A stretch of DNA of 32,052 nt from Reclinomonas americana ATCC 50394 (GCA_048213135.1 PS015767.1:19920-51971), one strand, 5' to 3'. Numbered from the stretch's first letter, positions 174 to 27,769 are shown. The notes: generated by a model not told the origin, from the letters alone. A program made the numbers and translations.

Positions 174-1473
174 TTCGCTGTCTCTCTTCGCCTACACTTT
201 CCGGGCGCGCGTTCGCAGATCGATATGTCACAGGCGCCGGGCTTCGTCTCCGAGGCCGACGCGATGCCGGTCGACTTTCACCAGCTGTTCTTGTCGTTTG
301 GCAGTATCATAGCGCGTCTGAATGCGGTGGCGGCGGCTGAGTTGAGACCGGTCGGGGAGCATGAGCAGCGCGAGTTTCGCCTGTTTGTCAGCACTCCTGG
401 CGACGGTACGATTGCGTGTGTGTTCTTTCACCCCTCACAGCTCGCACAGCTCATCGCATCACTGGCTGGCGCAGCATCGCTGGTGGACGCCGTGGTCGGA
501 GACCCGCTGGGGCGTGGAAACGAGGCACACAACGAGTTTCTGCAGAGGTGGGTGGTGGAGGAGTTTGACGAGCACGGTGGCGTCGCCACTATGCGGCTCG
601 GAGCGGACGATACAGGTGATTTGTTGGACTCTGCCGATGGCGGCTATCCGTCGGTGTCGTTGTCGTCGCTGGTGTCGCCGCCACCGGAGGCAATCGCACC
701 GCAGCCTGTGTCGCAGTTGCGTAGCTGAGGTCAAGTCGCCGACCGACCTGTCGGCTCCGCGCTGATGCATGCCAGCTGTGCAGGGAGGATCCTCCGTCGT
801 CACCAGTGGCCATTACACAGCACGACGATGTGTTGCTGGAGAGCTCACCGCCGGCGCACCCTTCGACCGGTGACGAAGCGGAAATGGCGGTTGATGACGG
901 CGACGATGCGATGGGTGAAGAGGGAGATGATGAAGACGGAGGAGGAGGAGAAAGAGGTGCGTGCCTCTGACAGTTTGTGTCGGGATCCACGCGACTGACT
1001 TTCGGCGTGCAGCAATGTTGCACCACCAGGGTGAGGATGTGGTGGTGCACGCGGACACACTTGCCCCAGCACAATCGCCAGAGCGAGACCCCCGTGCTGC
1101 AGTGGCGGCCGACGATGCTGTTGCGTGTATGTTATCACATCGCCTGCATGCGACTTCCTGTACTCACCACCACGAGTGCCACGCAGGCGATTGCGGAGGA
1201 GACGTCGGGGCATAGCATACAGATTCTGACGCATGTGTCGGCGCATGTGGCCAGCGACGACGGTGTTGAGGGGTCTCACGGCGGTGCTGGAGGAGAAGAA
1301 GCGGGAGTGACGGTGCGCACAATTGCCAAGGCCATGGTTGGTTGATGTGGGACTGGCACCTCTCACAATGTGTGTGATGCGCACAGTGGACAGTGATACC
1401 AGTGCGGTCCATGGAGCACCCGTTCTCCCTCCACATCTTCTTCCGACAGAGGCATCCGCCTGCTGCCGCCTAG
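1..1473 (+). CDS. Hypothetical spliced protein, probably 5'-partial; N-terminal hydrophobic (TM-like) segment followed by acidic low-complexity regions
   Basis: The frame VDVSDFVLVSVALVGAMVVGVVVVSSAGRSGGGRRRAT is joined by GT-AG introns (117-218, 716-783, ~957-1011, 1120-1187, ~1337-1387) into one continuous frame. It ends ...HPFSLHIFFRQRHPPAAA* at TAG 1471-1473. No family recognised. Confidence 0.5.
127..170 (+). repeat. (CT)n microsatellite inside intron 117-218
   Basis: Perfect TC/CT dinucleotide run seen directly. Confidence 0.95.
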
Positions 1474-1522
1474 AAGTGACGCTCTTTTGTTGACGATAAC
1501 TTCTGTTTTCATTCGGCTCGCA

Positions 1523-4500
1523 TCATGACGCTGGGCGCGGCGATTTCGGCGGTGGCGGCAATGTCTTGGCGCGCTTCTCGGCCGCCACCTCCACCGCCTG
1601 TCTCCGCCGCTCGAGCATGGCTGCAAGCTCGCGCTCCTCCAGGCGCCGTCGCTTGTCCATGTTGCGAATTGTTGCTCGCATCTCGGGTGTGGTCCTCGTG
1701 TGCTCCTGCAGCAGCGTGAGCTGGCGCAGCGCACTGCCTGAATACTCGGCGCACCGTGCCAATGGCATTCGTTTGACCGACGTCACACCCGTGGCCATGT
1801 CCACCTCCAGCGGTTGTCGCAACTGGCTGCCCTCCATGTCGGCTGCCGACACTCGTCCCACATTGTGATGCTTGAAGCCACCGCCGTTGACGCGTGGGCG
1901 TACTCGTTTCTCCGGGCACAGTACGAGGGGATCATCGTGACTGAGTGGAGCGCACACAGTCTTGTACTTGCGCGCCAGTTGTGCCGCACTGGCCTCCCAG
2001 AAGCGTGACTGCAGCAGGTCCTGCTCAGCTTGCGCCACTCCGGCGTCTCGATCCTTCAGTGGCTCCAGGTCTGAGAGGGAGTCAGCCACACGGAGAAGAC
2101 AAGACGACGGCCACACACAGCACGTAACATCGATGCAACGGATCCACCGATGTGGCGCGCAAGTGTCGCTTGACAGGACCCTGCGTCAGGCGCGAGCTGC
2201 CAATGGTGGTTGAGGCTGCTGATTGTGGTCGATCGCTGGGCAGCGAACGACCGGTCGTGCGTGCCGAGGAGCGTGAGCGCGCAGTGGCGGCCGACTGAGC
2301 GGCCGAGAGCACAGCTGTCATTTTCGGTGACAGCAGCATGGGGTCGTGGACATCTAGTTTGCCGTCGTCGACGACAACGCCGTCGTCGTCAACCTCCAGG
2401 ACCAGCAGCAGGTCGTCGGCCTCCTGCGTTTTTGTCTTCTTCCTCGTCGTCGTCGTCGTCTTCTTCTTGGTCGACGCCTTGCTCTTTGCTGAGCTCTTGC
2501 TTCTAGACGTTGAGTTCGGCGCCGATTCCTGTCTTCCCCCTGATCCGTCGCCACCTTGCGGCGACTCAATTTCGAGCTGACCCAGTGCCTCCAGGTGCAT
2601 GTTGGTCAACTCGGTCTTGAGCGACTGCAGGCTGGACAAGTAGCCGATGGTGCTGCTGTTGGCTGTCTGCGGCCGACTGCGTCGGCTGCTGGCTGTGCGT
2701 GGACGACTGCTGTTGGTGTGCGCCGACGAGAGTGTGGAGTTTGCCGAGGGCGGACGTCGCATTGGTGACGACGCTGTCTTGAGCATGTCGGCAGCCGGCG
2801 CCAGGTTGACGTCCGAGATTTGGTTCAGACGATAGGGTGAAACGGTGGCCAGCGACGATAGCAATCGCGGTGGCAGTTCTCCATAGTGGATCTGCATCAC
2901 GACAAAAGTGAGCCAATGCAATTGATTATGAGATGCATCGCCACTCTCGACGCAACGTCGGCCAGCTCCGCCATGTGCTTGATGTTGAGGACAGCCGTAC
3001 CACTGCTACGGCAGAGTGAGATGCCGTACACAGACTCTTTGGGAGCGATGAGGGAACGCAACGGTCGCGTGGCAGAAGCCGATCGAGCACGCTTGCTGGT
3101 GGCGGCACTGGCTGGCGCCTGTGAGGCCGTTACACTGCGAGGAGTTGTTCTAGCTTGAGAGAGGCGATTATTTCTGGAAGAGAGAAGAGGGACGGCGCGT
3201 AACTCTTCGCCCGCTCGATGGCGCTGCTTGTTGCTGGGCGAGATGATCGGAAACGGAAAGTCGATTTGGCTCAGGATTTTCATCTCCCGCAACAAGTCAC
3301 CACGAGTAAAAAGTGCGCGCTGTTGTGTCTCCAGTGTCGCAGCCTGTTCGGTCTGCAACATGCAACTTTTTCCGTGAGCAGCTATCCGTGGAGAAATGTG
3401 CGCGCACGCCGCCGTACCTGCGACGCCTGCTTTGTCGAGCGCACAACGGTGCTCTTGATGGACTTTTTCGTCTCCACCAGCGAGTTGGTGCCCGACATCG
3501 TGGACAGATCGGCCAGCAGCGAGTTGGCCCACTCCTGCACCATGTCGTTGTCGATCAACAGGTCTTCGTCGTCAAGATCGATTTTCATCAACGACCCCTC
3601 GAGGGGCGCCACCTCGTCCTGGCCCGCAACCGTGGCTGGTGACAGTATTCCGCCGTGCTGGGGCCTGTCGTCTTCGCCGGCCACCTAATGCACCGGTCAG
3701 CTACACATCGGAAGAGTACAAGGAGGCAGGCGACAGCCTCTCCAACCTCGTCATCGGCCACACTGGAATCCAGCTCCGACACATCGAGCATGTGACGGGC
3801 GGTTGCATGTCTCACAAGCCCCGTGAGCTCTGCGTGCATCACAGTGGCGCGTCAACCAGAAACCACTGCTACTGCCTCTCCTCTTCATCCTCCACTCACC
3901 ATTGGCGACCAGGGCCACCGCATGGGTCACTCCAGCGGCCACCATGAGCACCATACGCCCGAGAAATGCACGCACCGGCCGCGGCACCTCCACCACGTCG
4001 AGCATGCGGCCGTAACCGAGCTGACCCGAACTTCCCTCACCCCACGTAAACACACGCCCCAAGTCTACGCCGGCACACGGGTCACACAACTCGACTCGTG
4101 TGGAGTGGGTGACGCACATCGAGGAAAGCACGCGCAACGCAACTGGTGAGAGCGCACGAGAAGCGAGCACCGCACGCCACCTGCACAACGTGATGATTGC
4201 GCAACAAGTTGACAGCCTGCGGTGTCTGCTGCGGGTGCAGATTCAAGATCCCCAGCTGGCCGTAGTTGTTTTCGCCGCACGCAAACACCCGTCCGTCATC
4301 TGTCGCAAATCCAACTGAGCGTCAATCACGAAGAGGAGACCCTACACGCGCAAAAGAAACCTGTGCACAATACGGTGTGCGCTTCGCCTGCGGCTACCGA
4401 GACGAAGCGTGCGTTGCTGACGGATATGCGTTTGGGATCGAGACTGCGATGCACCGCGGAGCCGATGCCCAGTTGTCCGCGACTGTTGAGGCCACAAGCA

Positions 4501-5736
4501 TAGGCCTTGCCAGTCTCTGCCAATTGTGTGCGCCATCGATGAACGACCAGAGACGCACGGCTTTGAAGACAGAGGGACGAACCAGTGACAAACACGGTGT
4601 GCATGTTGCCGAGAGCGGCAAAGCTCACACGATCACGAATGGCCGACACCAACGTGGGCGTGAGACGAGAACCGATATTGCCGAGTCCGAGAGCGCCCTC
4701 GGGATTCATGCCCCACGAGAAAGCAAGGCCAGCCGCTGCGTACCGTGACAGTGTGAACTCCAAAGTGAAAGCTACGGATCGATTGGGCGAGCGAGCGCAA
4801 CTCGACACGAGCACATATCGCGCAGGTCCACAGTGGATGGAGCGCACGGACTGCTCCATGGGAATCGACACTTGTCGCGCATCAAAGGGGGCGATCAGCG
4901 GCTCCGCCAGCGCAGCCATGCGCAAGGCCACGGGCGCAACTTGCGGCATCCCGACAACCATGTTCTTGGCTGCACAGTTGAAAAAAAGACACGTGAGAGG
5001 AACACCAAGCAGCACCACCTCGCACGCCTCACGCACTGGGAGACTCGCTGTGCAGGCACCACAGAAGTGTGAGCGGCATCTGCACATGTTTGCAGCGAGA
5101 GAGAGACGGAACCTGAACGACGCCATGAGTGTGTCAGCCCGGATCTTGTCGACCGCCTGCACACGCAGATCGTTCTCCACTCGCTCATCCTGCAGCGCCT
5201 TTGCAATGTCGCTGACCGCAAACTGCCACACCTCTCCCTTGGTCGTCAACACCAGCACGTAGTCACTGTTGCAGCTGACCTGCACGCCGTCGCCACCATG
5301 GATTAGGGAGAGCACGAGAGAGTGAATGTGAGAGCGAGATCACCTGCGAAAAGGTCTCGTTCTGCAGCTGTCGGATCGTGTGTGGAGTCGGCACACTGTG
5401 GAAACCACCCTCGATGCCACCGGCAATGAAGAGACTCCCACTGGCTGTCTCCGCACTCGAGAGTGTCAGAGTCGAAACCGCCGCAGACACACACACACAC
5501 TCTCTCTCTCTCACACACACACATGAGCGCACCAGAGATGGCCACTGTGATCGTGGTGCCTGCGCTGATCCATGTGAACTGCTGGCCGGCCACGGTGTCG
5601 ACCACCGTCGGCACAATCGCGTGTTCCAGGGCGCCCAGTCCGAGCTGGAGAGGTGTGAGTGATGAAAGGGAGAGAGAGTTTGTGCACTGCGCACCTGGCC
5701 CACAGAGTTGTCACCCCACGCAAACAAGTCGCCCAT
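1523..5736 (-). CDS. RCC1/BLIP-II repeat (beta-propeller) protein with long low-complexity C-terminal extension; multi-exon
   Basis: ATG at 5736 gives MGDLFAWGDNSVGQ|LGLG. Further RCC1 repeats: GLAFSWGMNPEGALGLG, GKAYACGLNSRGQLGIG...VAAGEAHTV, GRVFACGENNYGQLG...VACGARFS, GRVFTWGEGSSGQLG...VAAGVTHAV. Exons chain in frame to ...PPPPKSPRPAS* (TGA 1525-1523). Linkage of the C-terminal part is less certain than the RCC1 domain. Confidence 0.8.
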
Positions 5737-5954
5737 GACCAGGGCGAGGCCGTGTCTTTCCTCTCTCTCTCTCTCCTGTGTGTGTGTTTGTACCAATGCA
5801 CAACGGCACGCGTACGAGTTGTTCGCTTAGCGATATCTGATATTGCTTTCATTTTCCGCGCGCGCCCGTATTGTTTCTCTGCTCATAGAGTGGGGGGAGA
5901 GAGCAGGCAGCTCGGTTGCTCGGGGCGGGGAAGGGTGCACGTGACACATTTTTT

Positions 5955-6875: not shown

Positions 6876-6885
6876 GGATCGTGTT

Positions 6886-9800
6886 TCACTTGGCGCCTGA
6901 CCACTGGAAGATCAATGCTTTGCTGTGTCGGGAATGGACCAAGTGGATCTCCTCGATCTGCGGCCACTCCAGTTGCACGTGGCGGTACACGGCAAACGTC
7001 ATGCTGGGCGACGCGCTCAGCGAGGTGCTCGAAAGTGAGCCGGGCATCAGCGACGATGACGAGGCAAGCGAGCCGGTGGACAGCGATCCACCAGCCGCAC
7101 CGGCGGCTGCCGAACCGATGCTGCGGGAGGGACGAGTCGCCAGTGACACGGGGCTCACTGTGTGCAGCGTAGAAGAGTGAGAGAGTGGGAGCAAGAGGCG
7201 AGAGGCGAGAGAAAGAGCAACAGACCAGTGGACGGGTCGCAACCGGGAATGCGAAAGTTGACGGCGGCCTTGGACTTGCCAGGCAGCAGGCCCGAAAACA
7301 TGCCAGCCTGCTCCACCTTCCACACCGACAGGTCGGCCTCAAGGTACGAGAAGATGGCCACGTGCTGACCCACGGGTGAGAAGGTCACTGCAGTGACAGG
7401 CGACCGATAACTCTGCGTGGACACGCGTGCATAAGTGACCTCAAAAATCCCACGCTCGTTCATCAACGCGCCGCAAACCTGAATGAGCTGTGTTCTGGCC
7501 GCTGTGCGCAAGTCAAAGATGGAGACACTGCCGTCGGGACAGCCGACGGCCACCTTTTGCGCCTCTCGATGGAACGTCACCATCGGGTAGCTGTGCATAA
7601 TGCAAGCAGAATCAGCATGGCGTGGGCACAAATTCATAGTCGACAACCGCCACGAAACGCATTGATCATGTGCCGCAGTGTGGCCGTGGTGTGATTCATG
7701 CACCGCTGTCGCGTGTTCGGGAAGTTGGGATCTAGAGAGCGCACAATGTCGCCGACAATCGGGCCCAGCTGCCCGACCAACACGCTGGCATTCTATGAAC
7801 AGAGATTTGTGAGTGACGAGCAAAATCACCACATTTCGTCCTTTTCCGATCAGACCTTCTCCACCACAGCCTTGATGAGCTCAATGTAGCTGACGTAGAG
7901 CAGCAACTCGTTTGGTTGAGTCATCTGTGTGCATCAGTCGGTGAGCGTTGCGTCGAGGGGCACAAGTGACAAAAGTAGAATATGCACGAACCGGTGCGCT
8001 CAGCGTGTCAACCAACAGTTTCGGATCGGTTTCCGCCACGCACAGCAGTGCTTGCATGGCCTCAGCAGCCACACGCTGCTGCACCGGCTGTGGCACCTTG
8101 ATTGGACTCGCTCCCGGCGACTGTTGCTGCTGTTGGAATTCGTGCTTCGCAAGCACCGGTACCGCCAGTCGGAACAGATGCGTGATGAAGGCAGGCGTAT
8201 CGGGAATGTCTGTGAGAAAAGAAGTGAGTGGCAGTCAGACAACGACGGTGCTCTGTGTATTGTGGACGCAACAATACTGCCAGGTGGAAAAGCCGGCGCC
8301 GAGAATCGAGATGGCAAACGGCTGATAGTCGCCAACTCGATTGCACAGACTCATCAATTCCAGTGCAATGAAGCTCGCAATCCTGCATCGCGGTGAGTAA
8401 CTGGCACACTCGCACTCAGTGCATCGCATGGGGGGCCACGCAACTGCTGGCTCAGGCACTCCTCGTGCTCAGACACAATCGCGCCAACAGCAACCACCAC
8501 GGAATCCTTGCGCGTGCCAGTGCTCCACGGCGACAGCACTGTGCCACAGCTCAGCTGGTTGCACGAACAGACAAGTACACGCACACACACACAATGCACG
8601 CAACATTCTTCCGTGTACACATCGGTAACAGTGCGTAGCCGAGAGATCCTCGTGTTGCGCGAGAACTGCATCAGATGCGTCCATGCACTCTCTTGCACGT
8701 GTGCTGTGTTTGGAGCGTAGAAGGTGAGCACAGCACGAGAATGCATGCATCACTGTGATGGGAAATCGCACGATTTGAATCCTTCAAGCAGTCGGCGAGG
8801 ATGACAGCAGACGGTGGCACGTAGTTGGGGTACGTGTCGGCGAGTGTGGTGGAGAAGTACTCGGACAGAGAATGCGCCACCGACTCGTACGCTGCTCACG
8901 CAATTCGGAACACATGACCACCAAGTGAGGAACAGCCTGCAATCAACTTCAAGCACACAAAAACACACCTGGAATCTTGCCGACGGCCTTGATGAGCGAG
9001 GAGCAGCATGTCAGCATGTGCGCACTGAGTTGAGGACACAGGCCGAACGGGCCGAGTCGCCGACACACGTTCGGGCAGTACAAGGTGTGTGAACCCCATT
9101 GTCTGCACAGCAACAACACGGTCGTGAGAGACGCATGCACACTGTATACACAACGAGCAAAACGCGCCCTTTGAATCCGAATGATGAGGACACAGCGGGA
9201 GTCACCATGGCCAACTCGTCCAGCAAATTGGCCGTGTCCTGTGCACACCAGACAGTCAGCATCTGCCTGAAACATACCGCGCACACTCCATCCGCACCAG
9301 AGGCATGTACTGGCGAACAAACACGTAGGAGCCTGCCGCTCTCCACGCAATCCACTCCGCTACGCCCTCCGACACGGGTCCCTCGAAGGAAGCAGAACGC
9401 TTCAGTGCTTCGTTGGCTAGCTCCACGCTGCGTCCGATAAAGCCACGCGACTGCAACCACACCAATGAGCACCTCAATCATGTAATCAACAGCACGCCAC
9501 ATTTCGCACATTGACGAGCGTCAGCAGCTGGCCAATGTCCACAATAAGCATCGTGGCTGATGAGCTCCAGCCTGTGACAAAGCACGCAGTGTTTGTTTAC
9601 ACACAGGAAGCGATGAAGCAGTTTTTTTGCGCGAGTTGCCACAGTACCTTCAGCACCTGTCAGCACGCTCTCTCCTCGCAGCAATCCACCTTCGTAGCTC
9701 GCACTCCGTGAACCCATGGTGTCGCGGAACCCAAAGTTGGTGTGCCTTGAGCTGCCGGCAAAAGGAGCAGTGAGGTATGAGCGACCAGTGTCACAGAGGC

Positions 9801-12800
9801 ACAGCAGCAAGTGACCGACCTGCCAAGTCCCTCCCACTGCTCAATGAGATCGGTGGCAAGCTGGCCGGCAACCTTGCGCTCCAAAATGCCCGTGGCCAGC
9901 TACTCAACAAATCAGAGAGACACAGCGAGTGAATACACCATGCGCACCAATGCAACGTACACCNNNNNNNNNNNNNNNNNNNNNNNNNNNNNNNNNNNNN
10001 NNNNNNNNNNNNNNNNNNNNNNNNNNNNNNNNNNNNNNNNNNNNNNNNNNNNNNNNNNNNNNNNNNNNNNNNNNNNNNNNNNNNNNNNNNNNNNNNNNNN
10101 NNNNNNNNNNNNNNNNNNNNNNNNNNNNNNNNNNNNNNNNNNNNNNNNNNNNNNNNNNNNNNNNNNNNNNNNNNNNNNNNNNNNNNNNNNNNNNNNNNNN
10201 NNNNNNNNNNNNNNNNNNNNNNNNNNNNNNNNNNNNNNNNNNNNNNNNNNNNNNNNNNNNNNNNNNNNNNNNNNNNNNNNNNNNNNNNNNNNNNNNNNNN
10301 NNNNNNNNNNNNNNNNNNNNNNNNNNNNNNNNNNNNNNNNNNNNNNNNNNNNNNNNNNNNNNNNNNNNNNNNNNNNNNNNNNNNNNNNNNNNNNNNNNNN
10401 NNNNNNNNNNNNNNNNNNNNNNNNNNNNNNNNNNNNNNNNNNNNNNNNNNNNNNNNNNNNNNNNNNNNNNNNNNNNNNNNNNNNNNNNNNNNNNNNNNNN
10501 NNNNNNNNNNNNNNNNNNNNNNNNNNNNNNNNNNNNNNNNNNNNNNNNNNNNNNNNNNNNNNNNNNNNATACACGTCGCACCTGCCAAATGTACACTTCG
10601 CCCATGAGACACTTGACCACGAGGAAATCATACTCGACTTTCCAGTACAGTCGAATGATGGGGGATGCGTGCCCACCGAGGACATGTAGGCTGTGTGGAT
10701 CGGTGGGACATGAAATGGTCAGCGCTCACGTGAGGCGAACCTCCAACACACGTCGCAGTGACGCACCACTGCATCTGATCCAGCGAGTAGATGATCACAC
10801 TGTTGTCCTGCCCGACAGAGCAAAACGTGTGCCGCAGCTTCTTGGAGACGTGCGGTGGAGGGATGGTGAGCGCCGTGACGGCCGCTGCGTGGAAGTAGAA
10901 CGCGCCAAGCTCCGACCCGGTGCTGCAACGAGAACGGGCAGAGCGTGAGATGACTATCTGCAGCGCAGATCCACAACCCAGCACGGACGCACTCGGGATT
11001 CCACACGCGCACGACAAAATCGTCGCCGGCCGACACCACTGCCTTGCTTCCGCGCAGAAGCATTTGGTCCGGAACGGCAAGAAGCGCCGTCACCTGTCCC
11101 TGATGACCCTGTACAACAATGTCTTGCGTCTCGTCTACCATGCTCCGGAAGCGGATGGTGCCGTCGGCTGCGCGACACCTCTTGTGGTCAACAACACGAA
11201 TATCGTGGTTTTGTTACTTGAGAGGCGAAACGCACCGTGCCCAGTGACGTACAGCGGTTCACCCTTGGTGACCGACACGGCAAACTCGCTGGCGGTGGTG
11301 GTGCTCACTGGCTCGCTGGCGGCCGCATCGTACGATGTGAAGCCTTGGTCGATTGAACACACTGCGAGAGACTACGGTCAGTCAACGGAACGAAACGAGC
11401 AGCGCCTGCCATGCACGCAACAGTGCGCTGGCGGCTGTGCGGCTATTGGCGACCCTGCGGCGCTACCATCGGCCGCAGCGCTCATCGAAAACTCGGATGC
11501 TCGCCACGCCCGCACCTCGCCGTGCCCGCTCGCCGCCACCAACAAGTCACCACACAAGTTCCAGAACGACGGTTTGCTGTGGCGAAGCAGCGACACATAA
11601 GTAGCGCACTCCATAAGCGCACTCACGTGAAATACAGTACCTCGCATCGCTTCCGCCATGTAACCGCGCCACGAGCACCGCAGCGGCTGAGCCACTGATC
11701 ACACAATGTTTTCATGTCAGGCGGCAGAAAAATCAATCGGAAAGAGACACAGAAAGCATGGCGTCCACCTTTCTCCGCCCGCCTCGGCGTCGAGTGATGT
11801 TGAGGAGGACGAATCCCTTGGCAGGTCTGAGTCTGACACATCGGAGCCTGCGCGCACACCATTTCTTTGCGAATGAGCCGAAGCATCTCAGTCGCACGAT
11901 TTCTTCACCCAACGGGGTAATTGCACGCAACCAGCACCACCGGCCAATGCTCGTCGTTGTGCCTCTGCGCAACACACAGAGTGGTCGGTCGCTCGGACGG
12001 TGAGCAAACGGGGTTGACGTGATGCATACCTTGCGCAGCGTCATCCAAACGCGTGTCCCACGTGCGCGTGACGGCAGTGGGGCTCGCAACTTTGGCGCCG
12101 ATACTCCGCAGCATGAACCCGAGAGAGAGCGTGAGATTGTAGGTCATTGGGCTCACGCCAACTCGCCGTGGGCGTGAAGATTCGCCTGCCACAGTCAGCT
12201 GGCTCGCCGACGGTGCGCCGCGGACGGCCGTCATTGACAACTGCAAGCGTGCACACTCGTAAGACGCAGGCTGGTTGACACAAGTACGCTGCGACGGCCA
12301 TGCTACGCACCCTGGAGCCCTCCACCACGGCCGGATCAAAGTCGTACACCAGGCCCTCGCCAATCTGCGATCGAGTCAGAGTGCATTCCGCGCAAGTGCA
12401 CACCCGCAGCACTACGCGACGACACCTCTGTGTGCACAAAGCAGCGATGCGCGTCGAGGAAGAAGCCATCGCACAGGGTCTGTGCCGGATCCAACTCCAC
12501 ATCCTCCAGGACGTGTTCAGCGACGAGTGCATAATCCGCCTTGCGGAAGATCTGCGAGCAAAGTGCGCGCGATGCAAGTCAGCAGAGACTCTCTCACACA
12601 TGTGTGCACGTAGGCGCTACGTACCATGAACACGCGCGGATACACAATCAGAATCAGATCGCCCCAACATCGCACAGCGCGCGCCGCATCATCGGTCTCC
12701 ACTTTGCGCGACGGCACGTTCTTGGCAGAACTCCATTCACACAACGTCTGATCCTTGGAGACAGAGATCACAGTCCACGTCGGTCCGCCTACAGCAAATA

Positions 12801-13639
12801 GCAGCGCGCTCATTCAGCACAGGATTCAGGCAGCGGCCGACATCCATCATCATCACCTGGTGCATTCGGGTTGGCCGACAACAGCGACAAGCCATTCACC
12901 CAGTCACGATGACCCGACAGGATCCGCGTCACCTGCATGTCACAGTGTCAGCAAAACCACCGCAGCTACGTGTACGTGCGTGCGTGCGGGAGGAGGCACC
13001 TTGAGCGCCATCAGATCAAACACATGCAACTCGGTATCGCGACCGGCGAGAATCAGCAGCGTCGGGCTGAGCGACATCATGTGTGTCACCGAGAAGGAGA
13101 CCACGTATGGCTCGTACGCCACACAGCTGCCGTTCTCGCGATCCCACACACTCAGACTGCCATCCAGAGACACTGCCGACGACGATGATCAGTCAGCACC
13201 ACAAGAATCGCACCCACTCTCTCGCTCGCTCAGACCTGCAGCAAACGCCGGTGCGCAGTGGTAGGTGCACGCACATACACAGGAGATGGGCGCCTCGTGA
13301 ATGCACAGCAGCGCCACAGGCTCAAACAGTGGCTGCTGAGCATGTCAGCAAACACACGCGCACACACGCACAGCGCAAGCGAGAGAGAGAGAGAGAGAGA
13401 GACGCAACGAGCACCACTGCACTGGCGGCAGCAGCAGCAGAAGCAGCAGCACGGCTGGTCATTGATGATGATTGCGGTGTTGCTGGTGTCGCATCCGCAC
13501 CACGCAAGGCCCAGAGACAACACTGCCCCGACTGCGATCCCGTCAACAGCGACTGCCCGTCCACTGAGACGCATGCGCACGACACAATGTGCAACGGCGC
13601 ACTCTCCCAGAGGGTGAACGGCAGTCGTCGCACCGACAT
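6886..13639 (-). CDS. WDR7: WDR7/WDR72 (rabconnectin-3 beta)-like WD40 protein; multi-exon, spans an assembly gap
   Basis: The N-terminus MSVRRLPFTLWESAPLHIVSCACVSVDGQSLLTGSQSGQCCLW resembles the WDR7 start. Internal segments: GHQGQVTALL...VSAGDDFVVRVWN, FCSVGQDNSVIIYSL, GGHASPIIRLYWKVEYDFLVVKC..GEVYIWQ, ILGAGFSTWQ. C-terminal segment: IVRSLDP...YPMVTFH...KVAVGCPDGSVSIFDLRT...VTAVTFSPVGQHVAIFS. Stop TGA 6888-6886. Not every internal exon was resolved. Confidence 0.82.
9964..10568. other. Assembly gap (N run) inside the WDR7-like gene
   Basis: Run of N seen directly. Confidence 1.
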
Positions 13640-13768: not shown

Positions 13769-13773
13769 GTTCT

Positions 13774-16500
13774 ATGAGTGGCAGGCCGATGGAGGTGGAC
13801 AGCGATGGCGGAGGCTCGGGTTCGGGTTCGACAGCGACGTCATCGTCGCGCTCAGCGCGTCGCCGAGAAAAGGTGTGCACTGTCAACCTCTGTGCCTTCG
13901 TTCTTACGGCTCACACATTCTGGCACACACACACAGATGATGGCGCTTGGCCGACTGCCGTCGTTGCCGCTGGATGAGTACGAGAGCAGCAGTCCGAGTG
14001 TCGGCAGTGCCAGCACTGCTGATGATACGCTGGCGCTGACGATTGTGCCGGCGGGCAGTCAGGCGTGGCGGCCATTCACGTTGCATGTGTCGCCGCGCGA
14101 GATGGTGCTGAGCATCAAGCAGCGGGTGGCGGCGGAGCTCATGTGGCCAGGTATGAGATGAAAGGATTGTCGTCACCAACAAGACAAGTGACGACAAAGT
14201 TGTGCGTGCAGTGTATGCGCAGCGACTGGTGGTGTTTGGGCATGTGCTGAGCGACAAGGAGTACATTGGGCCGGCGACGGAGCGTGCACGCAAGGTCATG
14301 CGCGGTCGCAAGTTCTTTGTCAGTGTGGTGCCTACGGGTGAGTGACGGGCGCTGCTTTTCTTTTCTTACCAAGTGCATGCTGATGATATGCTGTTGTTGC
14401 AGTGGCCGTCAACAAGCTGTGGTCGAAGAACGACGAGGAGAGCTCAGTTGTCCCTGGGTCGCGCACCGGAGCGACAGCGATTCGACTCGGGCAACATCGC
14501 GTGGTCGTGTTTGGCGGTGGTGTGTCGCTGTCCGTCTGCGTGTCGGCCATCACACCTCCCTCACACTCGCACTGCAGGCCTTCAAGGCGGATACACGGAT
14601 CGCACAACTCTGTTTGATTCGCGAACACTGGAGGTTGTGGTGTCACGTGTGTGATCACCTCGAGGTCGTTTTGTGACCCGTCTGTGTATGCCTGTGCAGT
14701 GGACTGACCTGGTGACGCGTGGCGAGAAGCCTCCAGCTCGTGCCGCTCACTGTGCGTTCACCTATGCCGGACACATGTACATTTACGGCGGACGCGCGCG
14801 TGATCGCTACTTCAACGACTTGTATCAGCTGGATTTGTTGCGTTCCCGTGGCCTCTGCTCGTGCTCTTGTCGTACGTACATTGACGTGTGCATGCATACT
14901 CGCAGGGACACCAATACGTGGAGTCGTGTGCCGACCAGTGGCGCGCATCCGCCTCCCGGAGCCGGTGTGGTATGTCCTCATTCACTGGTAACAACACGCT
15001 CAAACTCTCGACTGATTGTGGGAATCGGCGGCAGGCCTCGGCACTCCTCGGCGATCGCTTCTTTGTGTACGGTGGCTACGATAAGAGCCACAACACGATG
15101 CAAGAGATGCATTCTCTCAGTTGCGGCTGTTCTTGAGTGGGCGCACAGTTGGGCACAATCGTTCTCACTCCCACTGCACCTCTGTCCTCTGCAGACATGA
15201 GTGCGTTTTACCTGCAAACGTGATCAAGCTTCATTACGTACTCTGCCTTACCTCCTTACCCCCTTCGTGTTTGTTGCAGACACGATGATTTGGGTCAAGG
15301 TCAAGTTGACGGCCGAGCCCGGAGTGCAATCACCCGGCAAGCTCGCCGGCGCCACGTGCGTCACTCGTGTGAATTCGAAGAGTAGCGTGCTCACGATTGG
15401 CAGTCGCTAAATTGCAGCTCACACAATGCAGCCTCACGGCCTGGGGCGACTTCCTCATTCTCTTTGGCGGGCTCGGAGTGACATTTGAGAGTGCGGTGTA
15501 CGTGCTGAACACGCTGATTCTGCGCTGGGTTCGCGCAAAGGCCACCTCTGTTGCGTTCATCGATAGTGTGTAGATGTGTGCGCGTGCGCCGGATTCTACT
15601 CATCGCTTGACGACACAGGGCGACGTGCCGAGTGGGCGCGCCTTCCACTGCGCGCAGCTTGTCGGTGGTCACTTGCTGATTCACGGTGGGAGGAGCAACA
15701 CGACGTATTTCGCCGACTTTTTCTGCCTCCGACTACGTGCGTGATGGATGATGTGGCTTCAACGCAGTCCTCGCTCACTCACTCACTCGTATGCGCGTGC
15801 AGGTGACATGACGTGGAAGCGGCCGCATCTGTATTCAGTTGGCGACTTGTCCGATCGGGTGACACAGTACGGACGACAGCTGGTGCGTGGCTCGCTGCTC
15901 CTCGGTCGCGCCGGCCACATCATGGTACGCCTGTTACCTTCAGTTCTACAATCCGTGCGCTGGTTGGGTGAGATGGTCACACCGTTTCTTGGGCGACCGC
16001 AGATCCGCATCGCGTGCGCCGAGGAAATGGTGATGGAGAACGGTGGCACCCCGGTGGAGAATGGTGCCGACGATGATGACGGTGATGATGCCGCCAATGG
16101 TGCGACAGGAGAGCTGCCGCTGATGGGCGACGGTGACGAGGATGAAGACGGAGCGTCATCGTCCGGAGCTGCACGAAACGCAGCGGGCGAAACGACTCGC
16201 GCGGTGGTCGCAGCCGCTGTCTCCAGAGGTGTGTGGGCGTGCGTGCATACAGTCCACACCTATCTATCGCCTGCGGGAGTGAGACTGATCGTCTTCTCTA
16301 TTTCTCTGCCTGGTACAGCATCGTCGCTGTCTGGCGGTCTGACACGCGGCGCCAACCAGCTGTTCATCTACGGAGGCGACTGCGAGACACAAATCTTCCA
16401 CGACACGACGTTGCGTGGTGGTGCACGCTGCTGACCGTTGTCGCCAATGTGCCACTGACTGGTCTCACACAGCGTGCTTGACACGTTCTTCGACCCATGA
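13774..16500 (+). CDS. Kelch-repeat (KLHDC/RABEPK-type) beta-propeller protein with N-terminal ubiquitin-like domain; multi-exon
   Basis: Starts MSGRPMEVDS...REK|MMALG. UBL-like segment: FTLHVSPREMVLSIKQRVAAELMWP|VYAQRLVVFGHVLSD. Kelch blades: RTGATA...VVVFGG, PPARAAHCAFTYAGHMYIYGG...FNDLYQLDL, FFVYGG, FLILFGG, PSGRAFHCAQLVGGHLLIHGG, RAGH...LFIYGG. Ends VLDTFFDP* at TGA 16498-16500. Confidence 0.85.
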
Positions 16501-16553: not shown

Positions 16554-19500
16554 CTATTCCAACGCGTCTAGGTCGATGGCGGGTCTAATCGTCTGCAGCA
16601 ACTGTTGCAGCTCCTCCGAACCGGGTGCCAGCTCCAGTCCACGCGTCACATCTGCGCCAAGAATGAGTGACGACGTCGAGCGTCTCTTTGGATGTGGATT
16701 CATCATGCACTCACCAGAGAGCGCATCCGTCAAGTAGCCCAGCTTCTCCAGGCAACAGGCGCGTCTGTAGATGGCCTTGACATACTTGGGATCCTGCAGC
16801 AGTGCCAAGTTGCAGTATTGCAGTGCGCGGTCATACGCTTTCTGCGGGGACACAACGCGCCAACAGCTCAGCTCGCGCCACACACAAATGCCCATTAGCT
16901 CTGGTTCGTCTCGTCACGCAACGAGTTGGAAGAAGCAGAGGGAGCGGTTGTTTTGGCAGAACTTGCGGTTCTCGTCGCCTGGTGGCAGCCACCGGATGGC
17001 GTCGGTGTAGTGTTGAATGGCCAGCTCAAAGTCCTTGGTCTTGTAGGCCTTGGAGCCCTCCTCTTTCAGGAACAGACCCTTGTTCTGCGATCGAGGCAGT
17101 GTCAGCACGGATGGACACACGCACCACACACTGTCTGTCACAACAGACCAAATCCGGCTTGTCGAGTGCGTAGCGTTCGACGCTGGGCGTTCCCGGCACC
17201 GGGTGTGCGTCCTCTGTCGTCGTCACATGCCACAGGTAAGCAACCGCGTAACCGCACACCAGCACGCAAACACCGACGAACCGAGTTGCTTGTAGATGAT
17301 GCCGCACATGGTGGCGACAATCTCATCACCGGCGTGCAGCTCCTCAATCTTGTCGAGCACGTGCAGAATCGGCAGCTTCAACACAAAACTCTCGTCCAGC
17401 GGACAGAACTGGAGGGTGAGGTGCAGCAGGTTGAGGCACTTTTTGCAAAACTCGATTCGATCCTCGGCCCAGTCCAGGTTGCGCACGAGGTATTCGATGA
17501 ATCGAGATGTGCACAGGAAACGGATCACTTTCTGGCCCTCGTGATCCTGGTCAATCATAATGTGCAGCAGGTCGAGCAACAACTCCAAGAACTCGGCATG
17601 GATGACCTGCGATCGCGAATCAGACAGACACGCACAAAGAGGCAGCAGCACGGACTGTGACCAGACCTCTTCTGCTTCGGCCTCCTCCAATTCGTCGGGA
17701 TGATAGTTCTCCTCGCGCAGCTCGTCCTCGCAGTAGTCGATCACCATGGTGCCCGTGTCGAGGAGCGTGATCAGATGCTCGCCGCCCTTCTCCTCCAACA
17801 GGAACCGTGTGGCCAACGCCGTGTCGTAGGTGGCCAGACACACCACACTCTCCAGCAGGCGCACTTGAAGCTCCATGGGGACCTGATTCGCACAGGGCTG
17901 ATGAGGAGACGCACAAAAAACAGGTCATGCAATTCCCACGCAACTTGCTCTCTCCACGCGCCCACCAGTGCGTCGGCAATACCCGCCTCAAACAACCGGG
18001 CAGCCATCTCCCCCACTTCCTCTGGCGTGCAGTCGCCCACAGCCCACGCACAGTTGTGCAAAATGTCGGCCATGATGGTAATCAGACCGAGGGGGGCTTC
18101 TGTGGCCAGTCGGAAGATGCAGCGCAACAGTCCACTCTGCAGCGCCCGTCGCAGCATGGCACCACCCAGGCCGTACGTGCTCTCCGCCGGCGACACGGCC
18201 TCGGCCTCCACCCGCGTCAGTATGTCAACCAGACGCAACAGAGCCGCCAGCGTGTCGTCCACACCGTCGCGTGGCACACCTGCCGACAGACAACACAACA
18301 TCGTCAGCTCCTCGAATATAAACCCCAACAGAAAGCGCAGGCACTCAACTGTACGACAGCGTCGTGTTCTCCCGCACCGAAGTCAGCGTCATCACACCGG
18401 CACTGCCGCTGCTCGATGCCGGCAACTCGGCGACTGCAGTAGTAGGGGCTAGTTGTGGGGCCGCCGTCAGCGCTGGTGGCGAAGCGATGGCACCACCGGC
18501 GTGCACGCCACCGTGTCGTCCATTTGCATGCGTGTGCGCCAGGTGTTGCGTTTGCTCCTGCAGCAGAGACACCAATTTGGCCGCGATCGACTGATTCTCC
18601 AGCATGCCGAGTCGCAGCTGCTGGAAGAACGGATTCTCGAGTTCCTCTTCGTGCGCATACTCGAGCATGGCACAGAGGCAGGCCAGGATCGGGAATGTGT
18701 GCTGCAGCGCGCACGCAAAGTCAGTCGACCGAAACATAAAGACGACCATTCTGGTCTCACCGTGGGATTGGTGTTTGTGAGAAAGAACTCGACCACGTGC
18801 TTGTAGTTGTAGGCGATGAACGAGACGCGCACTTCGCCGACCATGACCTTTGACAAGTTGGTGAGTGCTGACAAGGCATCCTCGCACAGATTGGCCACCG
18901 ACGTGCGACCGCCGAGCCGCAGCAGATCGGTGACAAACGTGCACAGGCGGTTCTGCGCAAACGTGCCAAAGTCGCTCACGCGAAAGTTGACCGTCTCTGC
19001 GCGCGTAGCTCGTCGTCAGTGCACCGTACCAACGAAGCTGCACACACAAAGACAAACACACAAACCAGCATAGTCCGACGACTGCGCGCTGCAGAACCTG
19101 GCAAACGCCAGCGTCATTGTGTTGTAGATATCGAGCACACGACGCGTGAGCTCAATGCTCTCGCCCGACACGGCCATGGTGAAGAGCAGGCTGGAGCACT
19201 CGTCGGTCATGAAAAAGTTGCCGAGATTGACATCGCGCCGCAGCAACTCCTTCAACGACACAAACACATCGACAATGTGCGCATCACGCTGCTCCGCTGC
19301 GCGCGAGCCAGGTGGCGCACTGGGCACCGGCAGTGACGACGACGATGAGGCGGCAAGAGCGGCAGTGGTGGCCGCCGCAATCGTCGCAGCCGGGCTGTTG
19401 GCCGCCGCAATGGCTGCGACAGCTGCTGCCGCACTGGCGGTGGCTGAGCGGGGGAGGAGGCCGCGCAGAACTGCAAGCAGCTTGTGTGGTCGCTTCGGTA

Positions 19501-20608: not shown

Positions 20609-20655
20609 TTGTCTCGTCGCAATACAACAACATTGTACATTGTTTCTCAATTTTT

Positions 20656-23600: not shown

Positions 23601-26600
23601 CAGTCACGTTGCTCGCCGGCGGCGGTGCGGAAAGCGCCGCTGGCGCTGCTCCATGCTTGTCGTGTTCCGATTCCTCCAGCACCTCGTCGATCAGACCGCC
23701 AAAGAGCTGCAGCAGAGAGTGGGTGGGTGAGCAACACGTGACACTGATTGGGCAAGCGATAAGTGACCAACCCCCGAAGGTTTCTTCTTGGCCGCAGTCG
23801 CCGACGCAGTCGGCTTGTGCTCATCGTGTGGTGGTGCAGCAACAGGGGCAGCAGTTTTCTTCGATTCCACATCGCTGTCCGAGTTCTCCTCGTCGGATTC
23901 GGAGTCAGAGCCATGCTTCTTGTCTTTCTGCTTGCCACCCTTCCTCTTCTTCTTCCCCTTGTCGTGCTTGCCACCGTGTCCCTTGTCGGAGGAGGGCGTC
24001 TGCGAGGCAACATCAGTGAGCAATGGGCTATCGCAGGAGAGGAGAGACACAAAAACAATCATCGTCACCTTTGCGTGATCCTCATCGCTGGAGTCGGAAT
24101 CGCTGTCGCTGTCGTGCTTCGCCTTTGGCGAATGCTCGTCATGCTTCGCTGCTGGCGGCGCAGGCGGATGCTCGTCGTGCTTCGCAGCTGGCGGCGCAGG
24201 CGGGTGCTCGTCGTGCCTCGCAGCTGGTGGCGCAGGCGGATGCTCGTCGTGCCTCGCAGCTGGCGGCGCAGGCGGATGATCGTCGTGCTTCGCAGCTGGT
24301 GGCGCAGGCGGATGATCGTCATGCTTCGCAGCTGGTGGCGCAGGCGGGCGGTCGTCGTGCTTCGGTGCCGGTGGCGCAGGCGGGTGCGCTTCATGTTTCG
24401 GCGCCGGTGGATGCGGATGATCATCATGCTTCGAAGCTGGTGGCGCAGGCGGATGCTCGTCGTGCTTCGAAGCTGGTGGCGCAGGCGGATGATCGTCATG
24501 CTTCGCAGCTGGCGCAGGCGGGCGGTCGTCGTGCTTCGCAGTTGGCGGCGACTGCGGATGATCATCGTGCTTCGCCTTTGGCGCATGCTTGTCGTGCTCC
24601 GCCTTCGGCGAGTGCTTCTCGTGTTTCGAATCAGGCGAGTGCTTGTCGTGCTTCGCCTTTGGAGAATGCTTCTACACGCAACATGTGAGCATCTGAGGCG
24701 AGCGAGTGCGCGAAATTAAGCGTCGTACCTTCTTCTCATGGTGGTCTTCGTCGCTCGAATACGAGTCACTGTCGTGACTGCTGTCGTCTTTCTTGTGCTT
24801 TGCCGCCACCGGAGCCTGTCAGGTGCAGCCAAGGTGAGACATACACACACACATGCACCAAAGTAAGCAGCACTGTCCGTCAAATCGTGTACCTGAGCAG
24901 GAGCCGGCGCAGGCGCAGGTGCTGGTGCAGGAGCAGGCGAGTGATGCACCTGGGTGACGACAGGCTGCGCGGGAGTAACCGGTGTCTGCCGCGTGTCACA
25001 GTGTGGTCAGCAAGCAACAAGAACCACGTGGGGGCGGTCAGTCATCACGGACCTTCGCATGATGATCATCATCGCTCGAATATGAGTCGCTGTCGTGATG
25101 ATGCTTCTTATCGTCATGCTTCTTTTTCTTCTCCGATTCCGCTGCCTTGTCCTGTGAAACCATGCATGTCAACGCGAGAAGCACAACATACACGTGAAGA
25201 GAAGAATCCGCGTACGCACATGATGCTGATGATGGTGGTCATCCTTCTTGGGAGACATGTGCTTCCGCTTCTTGTGGTCGTCGTCGTCGTCGTCGCTGTC
25301 GTCGTCGTCACTGCTGTTGTGGACTACGAATGTCCCGTCACTGGTGGCCTCTGACAACCTGCGCCGCGCCGCCAGTGGATCGGTCGGTTGACGGAGACCC
25401 TCGTCGGAGGCGTGGTGCGCGTGGTCGGAATTCTTCAGTGCTTTTTCGATACGGGCCAGTGGGTCTGGTCCGTCGCTACCCAAGTCCAGCGAACCTGAGG
25501 GGCGATGATGCTTGCCGCCATTCGTCGGTGTTGAGTCTGACGAGTCTCCTGGAGGGTGCGGCGGCGGCACTGGAGCCGGGGCGGGGACAGGGGCCTTCGG
25601 GGCCTCTGGGGATTGCGGGTGCTTGTTGGCATGTGAGGGCGAGGTCTTGTGCTCCGGCTGCTTCGGCGCCTCTTCGGCTGGTCGGCGGCCGAGGAGGGTC
25701 TCCCAAGCGTCCTTGCCATTGGGGCCTTGACTGTCGTCGTTCATACTATCCGGGCTGTTACGACCGGAGCCGCCATTGGCCACTGTGGAAAAAGGTAAGC
25801 ACGAAGCAACGACATGCATGTATGCACACGGGTCCACGCAACGCTGTGAGAGGCTCGAGCGCGCGGCCTTGTCGATCGGCGTCACAGTAAAGTATGGCAC
25901 GAACTCGCCGCGAGCAGCGACAATGCGCAGAGTCTCGCGCAGTCGTGTCTGCTCCTCCTGCTCCTGGAACACGGTGCGCTGTGCGCTGTACACGCGCCGC
26001 ACAAAGGCATTCTCCTTGCCAGTCTTTTGTGCCTGAGTGTTACAAGCGTCTGAGTTTTGTGGCATGCCCTCACCCGCGCACACGCGTTCACGTACCGCCT
26101 GCAAGTGTGTCTGCGGCAGCAGGAATGGATTCCGGCGGGCCTTCAGTCCCATGAGAACCGAGACGTGAGTGCGATCAAAGAACTCGAGATCAGTCTGCAT
26201 CTTCTCCAGGTAGTTCATGCCGTTCCACAAGAATGGCTGCTTGAGTGTAAGTCCCTCCTGTGCAATGCATCGTGAGTACCATCGCACCCAGTCGCGACTC
26301 TGCAAGCATTCGACGAACCCGCCAGTGGATAATCGCCTCAGTGGTCTCCAGTGTGGCCTTGCGCACTGCGGACAACGCATTTTCGATCTCGTGACTAAAC
26401 ACGCGTGTCTCCAGCGCCCTGCGCATCATCACACCAGCAGTTAGTACAACAACGCACAGTCAGAGAGACCAACGTGAGCACACACACACACAACTGCGTA
26501 ATGTCCGACGACAGCTCCAACAGGTGCGTCAGGTCGCTGAGCCGCTGCTCACGCAGCTCAACGGACTTGAGGACGTCAAGGGTCCGTGATCGATGCTGCA

Positions 26601-27769
26601 GCAGACGAATGACTTCCAGGTGCAGAGCCGACAGGTTTTGCGCCGAAATCACGTCAAAGTACTCGGCAGCAAAGTCCTCCATGTCCTCAGTGGGAATGTG
26701 CAACTCCTCCCACAGCGACACAATTCTGCACGGTCGCGTTGACGTATCAGTGCATGCATGCACACACACACATCAGCCGCCATGGTGAAACGACGCAACT
26801 TGGCCTTCGATCGCTCAAATGTCTGCTCGAGTGACTCGTGAGAATCCTCAATCGGCGTCAACTGGCGACCTCGCAGCGGCTTGTGTGGGATCACCGGCTC
26901 GTCCTCAAACCAGTTATTGGGACGGCTGCGAGGAGCAGAGTGACCGCGCGGCGGCAGCGGGCGTTGCGGACGCGCACTGTGACTGCGACCACGCAGCGGT
27001 GCCCTGGCCGACGTCGGTGCACCGTACACGAGCGTGGCTGCCACCGTCGAGTTGGGTGCTCGCGTCGAGGACGCTGAGCGTGTACGGCCCTGACGAGCAG
27101 CTGCCGTGCCGTTTCCAGCAGCAGCGGCACGTCCAGGCACCGGAGACGACGGCGCCGAGTCGCCACCATACGGAGCCGCCAGTGGCGGGGGCGGCATGTC
27201 GCCACCACCGCTGTACATTGGCGATGTCTCCTGACGATGCCGCCTGCCCAGCGCCACACGCTGCTGCTTGTGATAGTTGCGCCAGAACTCATCGGTCTTG
27301 GTGAAAATGCAGTGCCGATCGAGAAGCGCGTTGTACTGTGGAATGCGGTCCAAGTGATGCCGATAGTCCCAGCCGGACTCGGCCACCACCAGGTTCGAGC
27401 TGCCGCAAACACAGCGTCGAATGAGGCGACAAACCCCAGCAAGCAAACAAAAGAACGGCGGCTATACCTGGGCGAGGGACCGCGGCCACTGCGAGGCTGA
27501 CTCGACGATCGCTGGCTCGTCGCACCTCCGACACCGCCGACAGGAGCATTGCGCGCCCCCAACGGATGCATGTACGAGCCGCCGGCGGGACTGGGCGACG
27601 TGCCGCGCTTACTTACGTGCTGAGTGGGGAATCGCTGCTGCTGCTGCTGCTGCTGTTGTGATTGTGGTGGCGGCTGTTGATGTTGCGGATAGTGAACGTG
27701 ATGAGAGGGGCTGCTCTGGTCCGACATGGACGACGACGACGTCATGCTGCTGTCTGCGCTGCGATTCAT
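20656..27769 (-). CDS. Large multi-exon protein: N-terminal globular/helical domain, His/Asp/Pro repeats, 11-aa Ala/Glu/Lys helical repeat, C-terminal IQ-like motifs
   Basis: ATG at 27769 gives MNRSADSS... Ordered segments: RIPQYNALLDRHC, IVSLWEELHIP, VRKATLETTEAIIHWR|...PFLWNGMNYLEKMQTDLEFF...NPFLLP. Exons chain in frame through the repeats to ...AGERIQAAYLAFKSREEA* (TGA 20658-20656). Confidence 0.7.
21883..22716 (-). repeat. Coding 33-nt tandem repeat, about 25 copies of ARKAAE(A/E)(E/Q/K)AEA
   Basis: Visible in ORF 21757..22935(-), with synonymous variation between units. Confidence 0.95.
24117..24560 (-). repeat. Coding ~36-nt tandem repeat, about 12 copies of AKHD(E/D)HPPAPPA
   Basis: Minus-strand unit GCG AAG CAC GAC GAG CAT CCG CCT GCG CCG CCA GCT. 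Its frame is fixed by phase-0 flanking introns and is not listed in the ORF track. Confidence 0.85.

Follow-up and report, generated by a model that had tools for sequence, protein, structure and literature searches.

Here we describe a second class of 5' splice sites, or donors, in a stretch of 32,052 bases from Reclinomonas americana ATCC 50394 (GCA_048213135.1 PS015767.1:19920-51971), which was analysed whole and is referred to below as the window. Donors of the main class carry the word GTGCGT, whereas those of the second class carry one extra T between the GT and the GCGT box and read GTTGCGT. An earlier note on this DNA had claimed such donors to be an abundant and discrete class. At predicted junctions this was confirmed in silico: the class is recovered by an intron finder that is blind to donor words, by an unsupervised mixture model and by a contrast in the last exon base. 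With 18 GTTGCG donors and three or four one-base variants, it would make up about 15-20% of the introns in the window, in line with the earlier estimate of roughly one in six of the introns traced. What appears to be new, on present evidence, is that a known type of donor, in which U1 small nuclear RNA (snRNA) pairs in a shifted or bulged register, forms a main class here instead of a fraction of a percent.

The window is an intron-dense eukaryotic sequence of about 60% G+C, in which a typical intron starts with a strong donor word and ends in (G/A)CAG after 55-95 nucleotides (nt), often with CTGAC, CTCAC or CTGAT shortly before the AG. All 14 GTTGCG(T) sites listed in the earlier note were found at the coordinates, on the strands and after the exon-end bases given there, as were its variant words GTTACGT at 2128, GTTTCGT at 7658 and GTTGTGT at 26494 and the three sites that it called ambiguous (2956, 17944 and 18349). 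The note had also proposed a comparison with background, and GTTGCGT proved to be over-represented, with 23 copies on both strands of the window against 8.48±2.90 in dinucleotide-preserving shuffles, none of 300 of which reached 23 (maximum 21). Relative to the gene models, 20 of the copies are sense and 3 (7947, 18545 and 21605) antisense (binomial p=5e-4). Sense-strand counts of GT-N-GCGT are 20 for T, 8 for G, 2 for C and 1 for A, and therefore the inserted base is specifically T. Three copies of the word are not donors, those at 3062 and 18239 being exonic and that at 24682 lying at the 3' end of an intron. The ordinary donor word GTGAGT shows no sense-strand enrichment over the whole window (7 sense, 13 antisense); its counts are probably misleading because the reverse complement, ACTCAC, is the branch-like motif of sense introns.

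Five lines of evidence, each independent of the others, indicate that introns use these words as donors; they include predictions in which the donor word played no part. The donor-blind finder combined a codon table with an acceptor model trained on ordinary-donor introns only, its sole donor information being the GT itself; early dynamic-programming gene-finding runs served as training seeds and for nothing else. It placed 112 introns, among which GTTGCG was the commonest donor hexamer (9), followed by GTGCGT (8). By our tally GTTGCG accounts for 33 of 2028 sense-strand GT sites, as against 9 of these 112 choices (Fisher p=4e-5). An unsupervised two-component mixture fitted to the same 112 donors separated caG/GTGcGt (68%) from gcc/GTtGCGt (32%), the slash marking the cut, in its first round and before any feedback. 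After three rounds of re-prediction, which are in part self-reinforcing, the components had become caG/GTGCGT, with a G at the last exon position (-1) at 0.74, and GTTGCGT with no preference for G. The acceptor model, which uses no frame information, chose the same acceptor as frame tracing at 15 of the 18 GTTGCG sites, and acceptor scores were higher there than at other sense GT sites (median 4.9 vs 2.2, p=3e-5). A branch-like CT[GCA]A[CT] lies 9-38 nt before the AG in 12 of the 18 introns, 17 of which end in CAG and one in TAG. Within the donor itself the G, C and G of the box are present in 18 of 18 and the T in 16 of 18.

At every listed site the frame is open up to the GT and resumes at a CAG, or in one case a TAG, lying 60-81 nt on (58-81 nt with the variants included), yielding a frame-preserving GT..AG intron by frame tracing. 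The earlier note had held that these positions are fixed by reading frame and protein motif; this stands for eight junctions (4143, 4801, 7658, 8272, 8444, 14837, 15550 and 16922), which are backed by homology or by the register of fixed-length repeats, while several others have frame-compatible alternative donors.

Three of the junctions in question lie in the WD40 gene, with which the orthologue P0130, a protein of 1474 residues, is colinear in two blocks (27% identity over 423 columns, E=8e-43; 30% over 192 columns, E=2e-26). The introns 8383..8444(-) (CA/GTTGCGT, 62 nt, phase 2) and 8210..8272(-) (T/GTTGCGT, 63 nt, phase 1; also a donor-blind choice) fall within one ungapped alignment block. 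The codon split at 8272 yields the second Y of a W-x-Y-Y-I-P-D motif that P0130 shares; a cut one base downstream was considered and rejected, as it would put a stop or a C in place of that conserved Y. The second ungapped and conserved block holds both the variant 7591..7658(-) (C/GTTTCGT, 68 nt) and the degenerate donor at 7855 (G/GTCTGA). In the RCC1-repeat gene the intron 4065..4143(-) (CA/GTTGCGT, 79 nt, TAG acceptor) separates two repeats: the Pfam RCC1 profile runs from 1 to 50 up to the end of the exon before it, and begins again in the exon after it, matching 2-50 from residue 2. The same restart follows 4736..4801(-) (A/GTTGCGC, 66 nt), whose downstream exon opens an RCC1 repeat (profile 2-50 from residue 2).

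In the Kelch gene, the hand-built model of which joins 16 exons into a single stop-free open reading frame with GTTGCG at 4 of its 15 introns, the profile is contiguous across 14837..14905(+) (T/GTTGCGT, 69 nt, phase 2). This intron lies inside a repeat: the PF24681 match covers 38-85 as far as the end of the exon and continues after the junction at 138-153, the equivalent of 88-103 if, as we read it, the repeat period is 50 residues. On the same period the profile is contiguous to within two positions across 15550..15618(+) (T/GTTGCGT, 69 nt, phase 0), near which the strong word GTACGT at 15498, inside a conserved strand, is left unused. Finally, 16842..16922(-) (C/GTTGCGT, 81 nt, phase 0) lies inside a TPR: TPR_1 16-34 begins at residue 2 after the junction, the preceding 14 residues read as positions 1-14, and read-through meets a stop after 2 codons.

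Two further junctions were placed by their reading frames and by the finder. The intron 716..783(+) (CA/GTTGCGT, 68 nt, phase 2) follows an open reading frame running from the ATG at 225 to 715; read-through stops after 4 codons, so that with 16922 and 18349 (below) it is one of three sites at which a stop comes within four codons. The donor-blind finder picked it and the acceptor model chose the same AG; homology does not contribute here. For 1120..1186(+) (T/GTTGCGT, 67 nt, phase 0), frame tracing, the donor-blind finder and the acceptor model agree, and the rival GTATGT 7 nt downstream leads to a stop whichever of the tried acceptors is used.

The same three lines of evidence agree on 2892..2956(-) (C/GTTGCGT, 65 nt, phase 0), where read-through stops after 19 codons and CTCAC stands 17 nt before the AG. 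Two likely donors were absent from the earlier list. One, 11362..11421(-) (T/GTTGCGT, 60 nt), was found by frame tracing, with CTGAC 16 nt before an AG on which the acceptor model agrees; the other, 13336..13408(-) (C/GTTGCGT, 73 or 76 nt), follows the first exon of the WD40 gene, is in frame with the ATG at 13639 and is a donor-blind choice, the acceptor model picking another in-frame acceptor. Frame tracing, the gene model and the donor-blind finder all give 15120..15194(+) (CA/GTTGCGG, 75 nt) in the Kelch gene. The last intron of that gene, 16410..16472(+) (C/GTTGCGT, 63 nt), has two CTGAC motifs and an ACAG acceptor and was also found donor-blind; its coding support is weak because only 9 residues follow.

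Next to the intron at 15120 lies a possible micro-exon of 6 nt, ACATGA (15195-15200(+)), flanked by the GTTGCGG intron and by one with a GTGCGT donor. The frame is likewise preserved if it is skipped, which would leave a single 160-nt intron to 15279.

The remaining GTTGCG sites each have a competitor. Frame tracing supports 8539..8604(-) (T/GTTGCGT, 66 nt), where GTGTGT and GTGTGC lie in frame 12 and 18 nt downstream, the P0130 alignment has a 5-residue gap and the acceptor model prefers another AG. It also supports 25783..25842(-) (C/GTTGCGT, 60 nt, with a pyrimidine-rich 3' end), for which GTGTGC at 25829 with a later AG would give an identical downstream frame. The intron 26726..26799(-) (A/GTTGCGT, 74 nt, phase 2) precedes a MAP65-like exon that matches MAP65_ASE1 293-360 from its residue 1, and the intron would shrink to 44 nt if the in-frame GTGTGT at 26769 were the donor. 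Like that at 4801, this junction was checked from the downstream side only, the upstream exons having no Pfam match. The last, 17883..17944(-) (A/GTTGCGT), is a candidate: it has two in-frame acceptors (47 or 62 nt), a GTGCGT stands 30 nt downstream, and the acceptor model prefers a third AG.

One-base variants of the word behave similarly. The intron 18280..18349(-) (CA/GTTGAGT, 70 nt) has CTGAC 24 nt before its AG, and read-through stops after 1 codon. Frame tracing gives 2071..2128(-) (T/GTTACGT, 58 nt), with an in-frame GTGTGG 12 nt downstream. At 26419..26494(-) the word GTTGTGT is present as the earlier note had it, but its use as a variant donor is no better founded than that of an equally ordinary GTGTGT donor 3 nt downstream; both are in frame, they differ by one residue, and three finder runs picked 26491 while the mixture-guided run picked 26494. 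Finally, 29895..29956(-) (62 nt) begins G/GTTTGCGT, that is, with two extra T before the GCGU box and a G at -1. It is the only frame-preserving join, and by our count on the translation it keeps the 42-residue TPR_10/12 period exactly. This donor hints that the spacer between the GU and the GCGU box is flexible. Four sense copies of GTTTGCGT occur, namely this donor, one at 17271 whose role is unclear, and two exonic ones at 5725 and 4286.

We estimate the total number of introns in the window at roughly 90-110 on our own models. GTTGCG heads 4 of the 15 introns of the hand-built Kelch gene, 17 of the 88 that the mixture-guided models contain and 9 of 112 in the donor-blind models, which misplace many donors. 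Our own runs with a single donor matrix misplaced exon ends.

The two classes also differ on the exon side of the cut. Before the 18 GTTGCG donors the last exon base is A in 7, T in 6 and C in 5, and never G, as the earlier note had said of every donor that it listed, whereas G stands at -1 in 28 of 56 ordinary donors and in 13 of the 25 in the donor-blind set (0/18 vs 13/25, Fisher p=1.6e-4). At the predicted junctions this contrast between the second class and the main class is solid. The accompanying statement that donors after G are often degenerate also held, the examples being 7855 (above) and 7991, 26318 and 4582 (G/GTTCGT). Those G-preceded donors that have T at +3, among them also a degenerate G/GTTTCT read from the sequence near 4370(-), look like ordinary-register sites.

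Our preferred account of the class is as follows. The introns would be ordinary GT-AG spliceosomal introns of the U2 type, whose CAG acceptors and CTGAC/CTCAC branch-like motifs do not differ from those of the introns around them and in which one extra U separates the invariant GU from the GCGU box also present in the main donor class, G/GUGCGU. The 5' end of U1 would read this box in a register displaced by one nucleotide from the site of cleavage, placing the first intron G opposite C9, where the exon-end G normally pairs, and leaving the second U mismatched. The later U6/U5 steps would still direct the cut to the single GU available, and the U spacer would vary in length, being absent, one base or, at least once, two bases long. 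With C9 already taken up by the first intron G, there would be no selection for a G at -1, which would account for the contrast between the classes. We give this shifted-register account, taken as a whole, about an even chance of being right.

Several observations point towards a shift rather than a bulge. Set against CAG/GUGCGU with a displacement of one base to the left, CA/G-UUGCGU differs from the main consensus only at the first intron base of the latter, which is the shifted layout. The exon-side log-likelihood of the GTTGCG donors is -77.2 under the main profile slid by one base, -86.8 under the same profile in register and -76.7 under background composition; the slid fit is far above the same-register fit, which argues against a bulge that keeps the -1G:C9 pair. 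Duplexes were folded with duplexfold against the standard U1 5' end, as given in a table of PMC4856993. In these, G+1 lies opposite C8 at 16 of 18 ordinary donors and at 1 of 18 GTTGCG donors, and opposite C9 at 3 of the 18 (716, 4143 and 8444) and at 2 of 6 variants or candidates (18349 and 26494). At 716, 8444, 18349 (at -7.1 kcal/mol) and 26494 the complete shifted duplex has the lowest energy, while at 4143 only the exon-side part of it forms. CA precedes the GT at 4 of the 18 sites and at two variants, and among these 15120 alone forms no shifted duplex. The remaining GTTGCG sites form no duplex stronger than -2.3 kcal/mol, save an off-register one at 17944 (-3.3 kcal/mol). Since the shifted duplex appears at only 3 of 18 sites, standard U1 would explain only part of the class. 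The earlier proposal of a +1-shifted or bulged U1 mode is accordingly narrowed: the exon-side fit favours a shift over a bulge, but standard U1 pairs poorly at most of the sites.

A number of findings weigh against this account. At 15 of 18 sites no shifted duplex forms with standard U1, and most are weaker than -2.5 kcal/mol in any register. The slid exon-side profile is no better than background (-77.2 vs -76.7), so that an absence of exon-side pairing fits equally well. In the main class caG/GTGCGT itself the +4 C is mismatched to standard U1 and U6, and the snRNAs of the host may differ from the standard ones. Over the whole window only 16.6% of all GTTs follow a G, against which 0 of 18 has p=0.04, and because of this background the evidence for active avoidance of G at -1 is weak. 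Two candidates, G/GTTGCGT at 11931 and G/GTTGCGA at 7243, do have a G there. Frame-compatible alternative donors exist at five or six sites (8604, 2128, 26799, 25842 and 17944, with 26494 as the sixth), the intron totals depend on our own gene models, which contain errors, and the junctions are predictions from sequence.

Other explanations were weighed against the same evidence. The host might have an altered U1 5' end, two U1 variants or a changed U6, for example a U1 complementary to GCGU including the +4 C, pairing in the normal or a bulged register. Such a change would account for the weak pairing of standard U1 with most GTTGCG sites and for the mismatch of the main-class +4 C, C being the commonest base both at +4 of the main class and at +5 of the second. 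Two classes one U apart would, however, also be expected from register flexibility of a single RNA, and the U1 5' end is among the most conserved of eukaryotic RNA sequences; we hold a variant snRNA possible, if on the unlikely side. A search with Rfam families at gathering thresholds gave no match, and hence no snRNA, in the 32-kb window. For Ostreococcus, which has the same GTGCGTG consensus, undetected changes in snRNAs are called conceivable in the available part of PMC2483917. A bulged register, in which G+1 and U+2 pair as usual, one U bulges out and pairing resumes on GCGU, seems unlikely to us. The extra base, invariably a U, has another U next to it, as in the degenerate bulges that the available text of PMC4856993 describes for human sites, and G stands at -1 both at the two-T donor at 29956 and at the candidate at 11931, which folds that way. 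This register, however, leaves C9 free for an exon-end G and would predict one at -1, contrary to the 0 of 18 (against 28 of 56) observed; its same-register exon profile is the worst fit (-86.8), and the canonical-anchored looped duplex forms at 1 of the 18 sites only (25842). As a class, then, the GTTGCG donors do not pair like +2/+3 bulges, while sites with G at -1 such as 29956 are still compatible with one.

Recognition might instead be mostly independent of U1 pairing, the donor being read by proteins (U1C, LUC7-type or SR-like) or by U6/U5 under intron definition. The near-zero energies of the class duplexes with U1, exon-side bases that resemble background and the occurrence of spacers of 0, 1 and 2 U's would all suit such a model; the box, though, coincides with the bases through which the main donor pairs with U1 positions 3-6, and its sharp conservation is typical of an RNA-RNA contact, which leaves this explanation very unlikely in our judgement. 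That the models are mis-traced, with nearby ordinary GTs as the true donors or with the segments retained as coding, we consider highly improbable. There are alternatives at 8604, 2128, 26494, 26799, 25842 and 17944, the junctions come from sequence, the finder runs disagree in places, and three sense copies (3062, 18239 and 24682) are clearly non-donor. Set against this, eight junctions are fixed by orthologue or repeat registers, the shuffles fall short of the observed word count by about 14 copies, which agrees with the number of sites at intron starts, the class emerges donor-blind and the acceptors agree. Families of mobile introners seed many similar introns in some algae and fungi, and copies of such an element might each have brought a GTTGCGT end. 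This idea is hardly credible here, being contradicted within the window: 21 introns show no similarity past their first 7 bases, their lengths and 3' ends vary as in other introns, and an 8-mer is common to 26 of 210 intron pairs, by our reading mainly from GT and CT runs.

U12-type introns also present a second discrete donor class beside a main one. Their donor (RTATCCTT-like) and branch box are words unrelated to GTTGCGT, and by our reading the GTTGCG introns do not differ from their neighbours in acceptors or branch-like motifs. Inspection of the 21 introns found neither an RTATCCTT-like donor nor a TCCTTAAC-like branch box, and a U12 origin was rejected.

Among the closest known parallels are the shifted-register sites of mammals (Roca and Krainer 2009, as described in the available part of PMC4856993). 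There too a GU stands at the cut, pairing with U1 in the usual register is poor, and the best cases have CA as the exon end. The mammalian sites pair well once all pairs are displaced by one, which brings G+1 opposite C9, as is predicted here for some of the sites; an oligonucleotide in the melting table of the same source has the same layout, namely ACA, G, U, one odd base and a U1-complementary stretch. The differences are that the human cases are rare single sites, as against about one intron in five or six in this 32-kb sample, that the box is AAGU there and GCGU here, and that the predicted pairing with standard U1 is much weaker here. The +2/+3 bulge (Roca et al. 2012, via the available text of PMC4856993) is alike in that the usual +3..+6 bases come after GUU and the additional U adjoins another U; it occurs at 68 of 201,541 human donors (0.03%), whereas in our class the G at -1 that a bulge should favour is absent from 18 of 18. 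All validated non-canonical registers together make up 1.5% of those 201,541 donors according to the same text, so that the rarity of atypical mammalian donors asserted earlier was right in direction.

For Ostreococcus, the available part of PMC2483917 describes an atypical GTGCGTG donor consensus and a (G)ACTGAC(G) branch motif. The present window resembles it in its main donor, GTGCGT(G), in its CTGAC-type branch motif and in coming from a GC-rich genome, but is intron-dense where the Ostreococcus chromosomes are intron-poor with very strong signals, and an extra-T class goes unmentioned in that part of the paper. Tandem donors 3 nt apart that are read in non-canonical U1/U6 registers, such as that of STAT3 exon 21 (available text of PMC11162779), share the register ambiguity at adjacent GUs but are alternative choices at one site, not a genome-wide class. 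The window has a case of its own at 14634-14639(+), where GAG/GTT/GTGGTG offers two in-frame choices (14634 and 14637) that differ by one valine. A full-text literature search, outside which most subscription journals lie, found no such donor class outside mammals; a lineage-specific paper could exist.

Reporter constructs and a few dozen human sites have served to study how the exact cut is chosen at donors that U1 binds out of register. If 15-20% of donors in this genome have the box displaced by one base, it would offer thousands of natural test cases, and the contrast in the exon-end base between the classes could separate shifted from bulged pairing. Gene prediction would be affected as well, in that a donor model built on one weight matrix would put about one exon end in five at the wrong place in this genome. 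The data also raise the question of whether the U1 5' end, usually deemed invariant, has changed in lineages with a GUGCGU consensus. A more speculative extension, which we put forward tentatively and think rather doubtful, is a two-part 5' splice site made of a GU and a GCGU box lying 0, 1 or occasionally 2 U's further in, with a U1 (or a pair of U1s) adapted to the box and reading the +4 C, and with slippage built into the donor recognition of the lineage. Were this true, U1 binding and cleavage positions would be uncoupled naturally in about a fifth of introns, and slippage would be routine, not an occasional rescue of weak sites.

Genes in the window were named through Pfam searches on 130 long open frames and through our own gene models. 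From both we place a gene of unknown identity at 225-1400(+), the RCC1-repeat gene with a long tail at 1523-5736(-), the large WD40 gene at 6886-13639(-), the Kelch gene at 13789-16500(+), a gene with TPRs at its end at 16554-19653(-), a low-complexity and MAP65-like stretch at 20656-27973(-) and the TPR_10/12 gene at 28227-32006(-), together with a small gene at 5955-6736(-) and a gene at 19825-20600(+). Runs of N occupy 9964-10568 and 28503-29246.

The WD40 gene has about 30 introns, is broken by an N run, and its model is unreliable at 11700-12200. We tentatively take it to be WDR7/rabconnectin-3-beta-like. Its exon 7245-7589(-) had 1150 matches in a representative library, nearly all of them generic WD40, and P0130 alone was colinear. 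A protein atlas search returned generic beta-propeller clusters, and metagenome contigs gave two weak WD40 matches and no close relative in which orthologous introns could be compared. A 233-residue frame at 17226-17924(-) had no homologue at E<=0.001 in a search among longer proteins.

Two long, low-complexity, coding-like exons lie at 21865-22986(-) and 23772-24671(-), one made of repeats rich in alanine, glutamate, arginine and lysine and the other of repeats rich in histidine, aspartate, proline and alanine. The finder chained them and the MAP65-like gene into one model of 2000 residues, which probably represents several genes. Microsatellites of (CT)n/(GT)n occur at 121-170, 5490-5525, 13380-13400 and 28400-28490, several of them within or beside introns; GT runs of this kind give rise to many in-frame alternative GTGTGT donors. 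Lastly, a 60-nt segment at 17575-17640(-) with G/GTCTGG, CTGAT and CGCAG may be either an in-frame intron or coding sequence, and the finder read through it.

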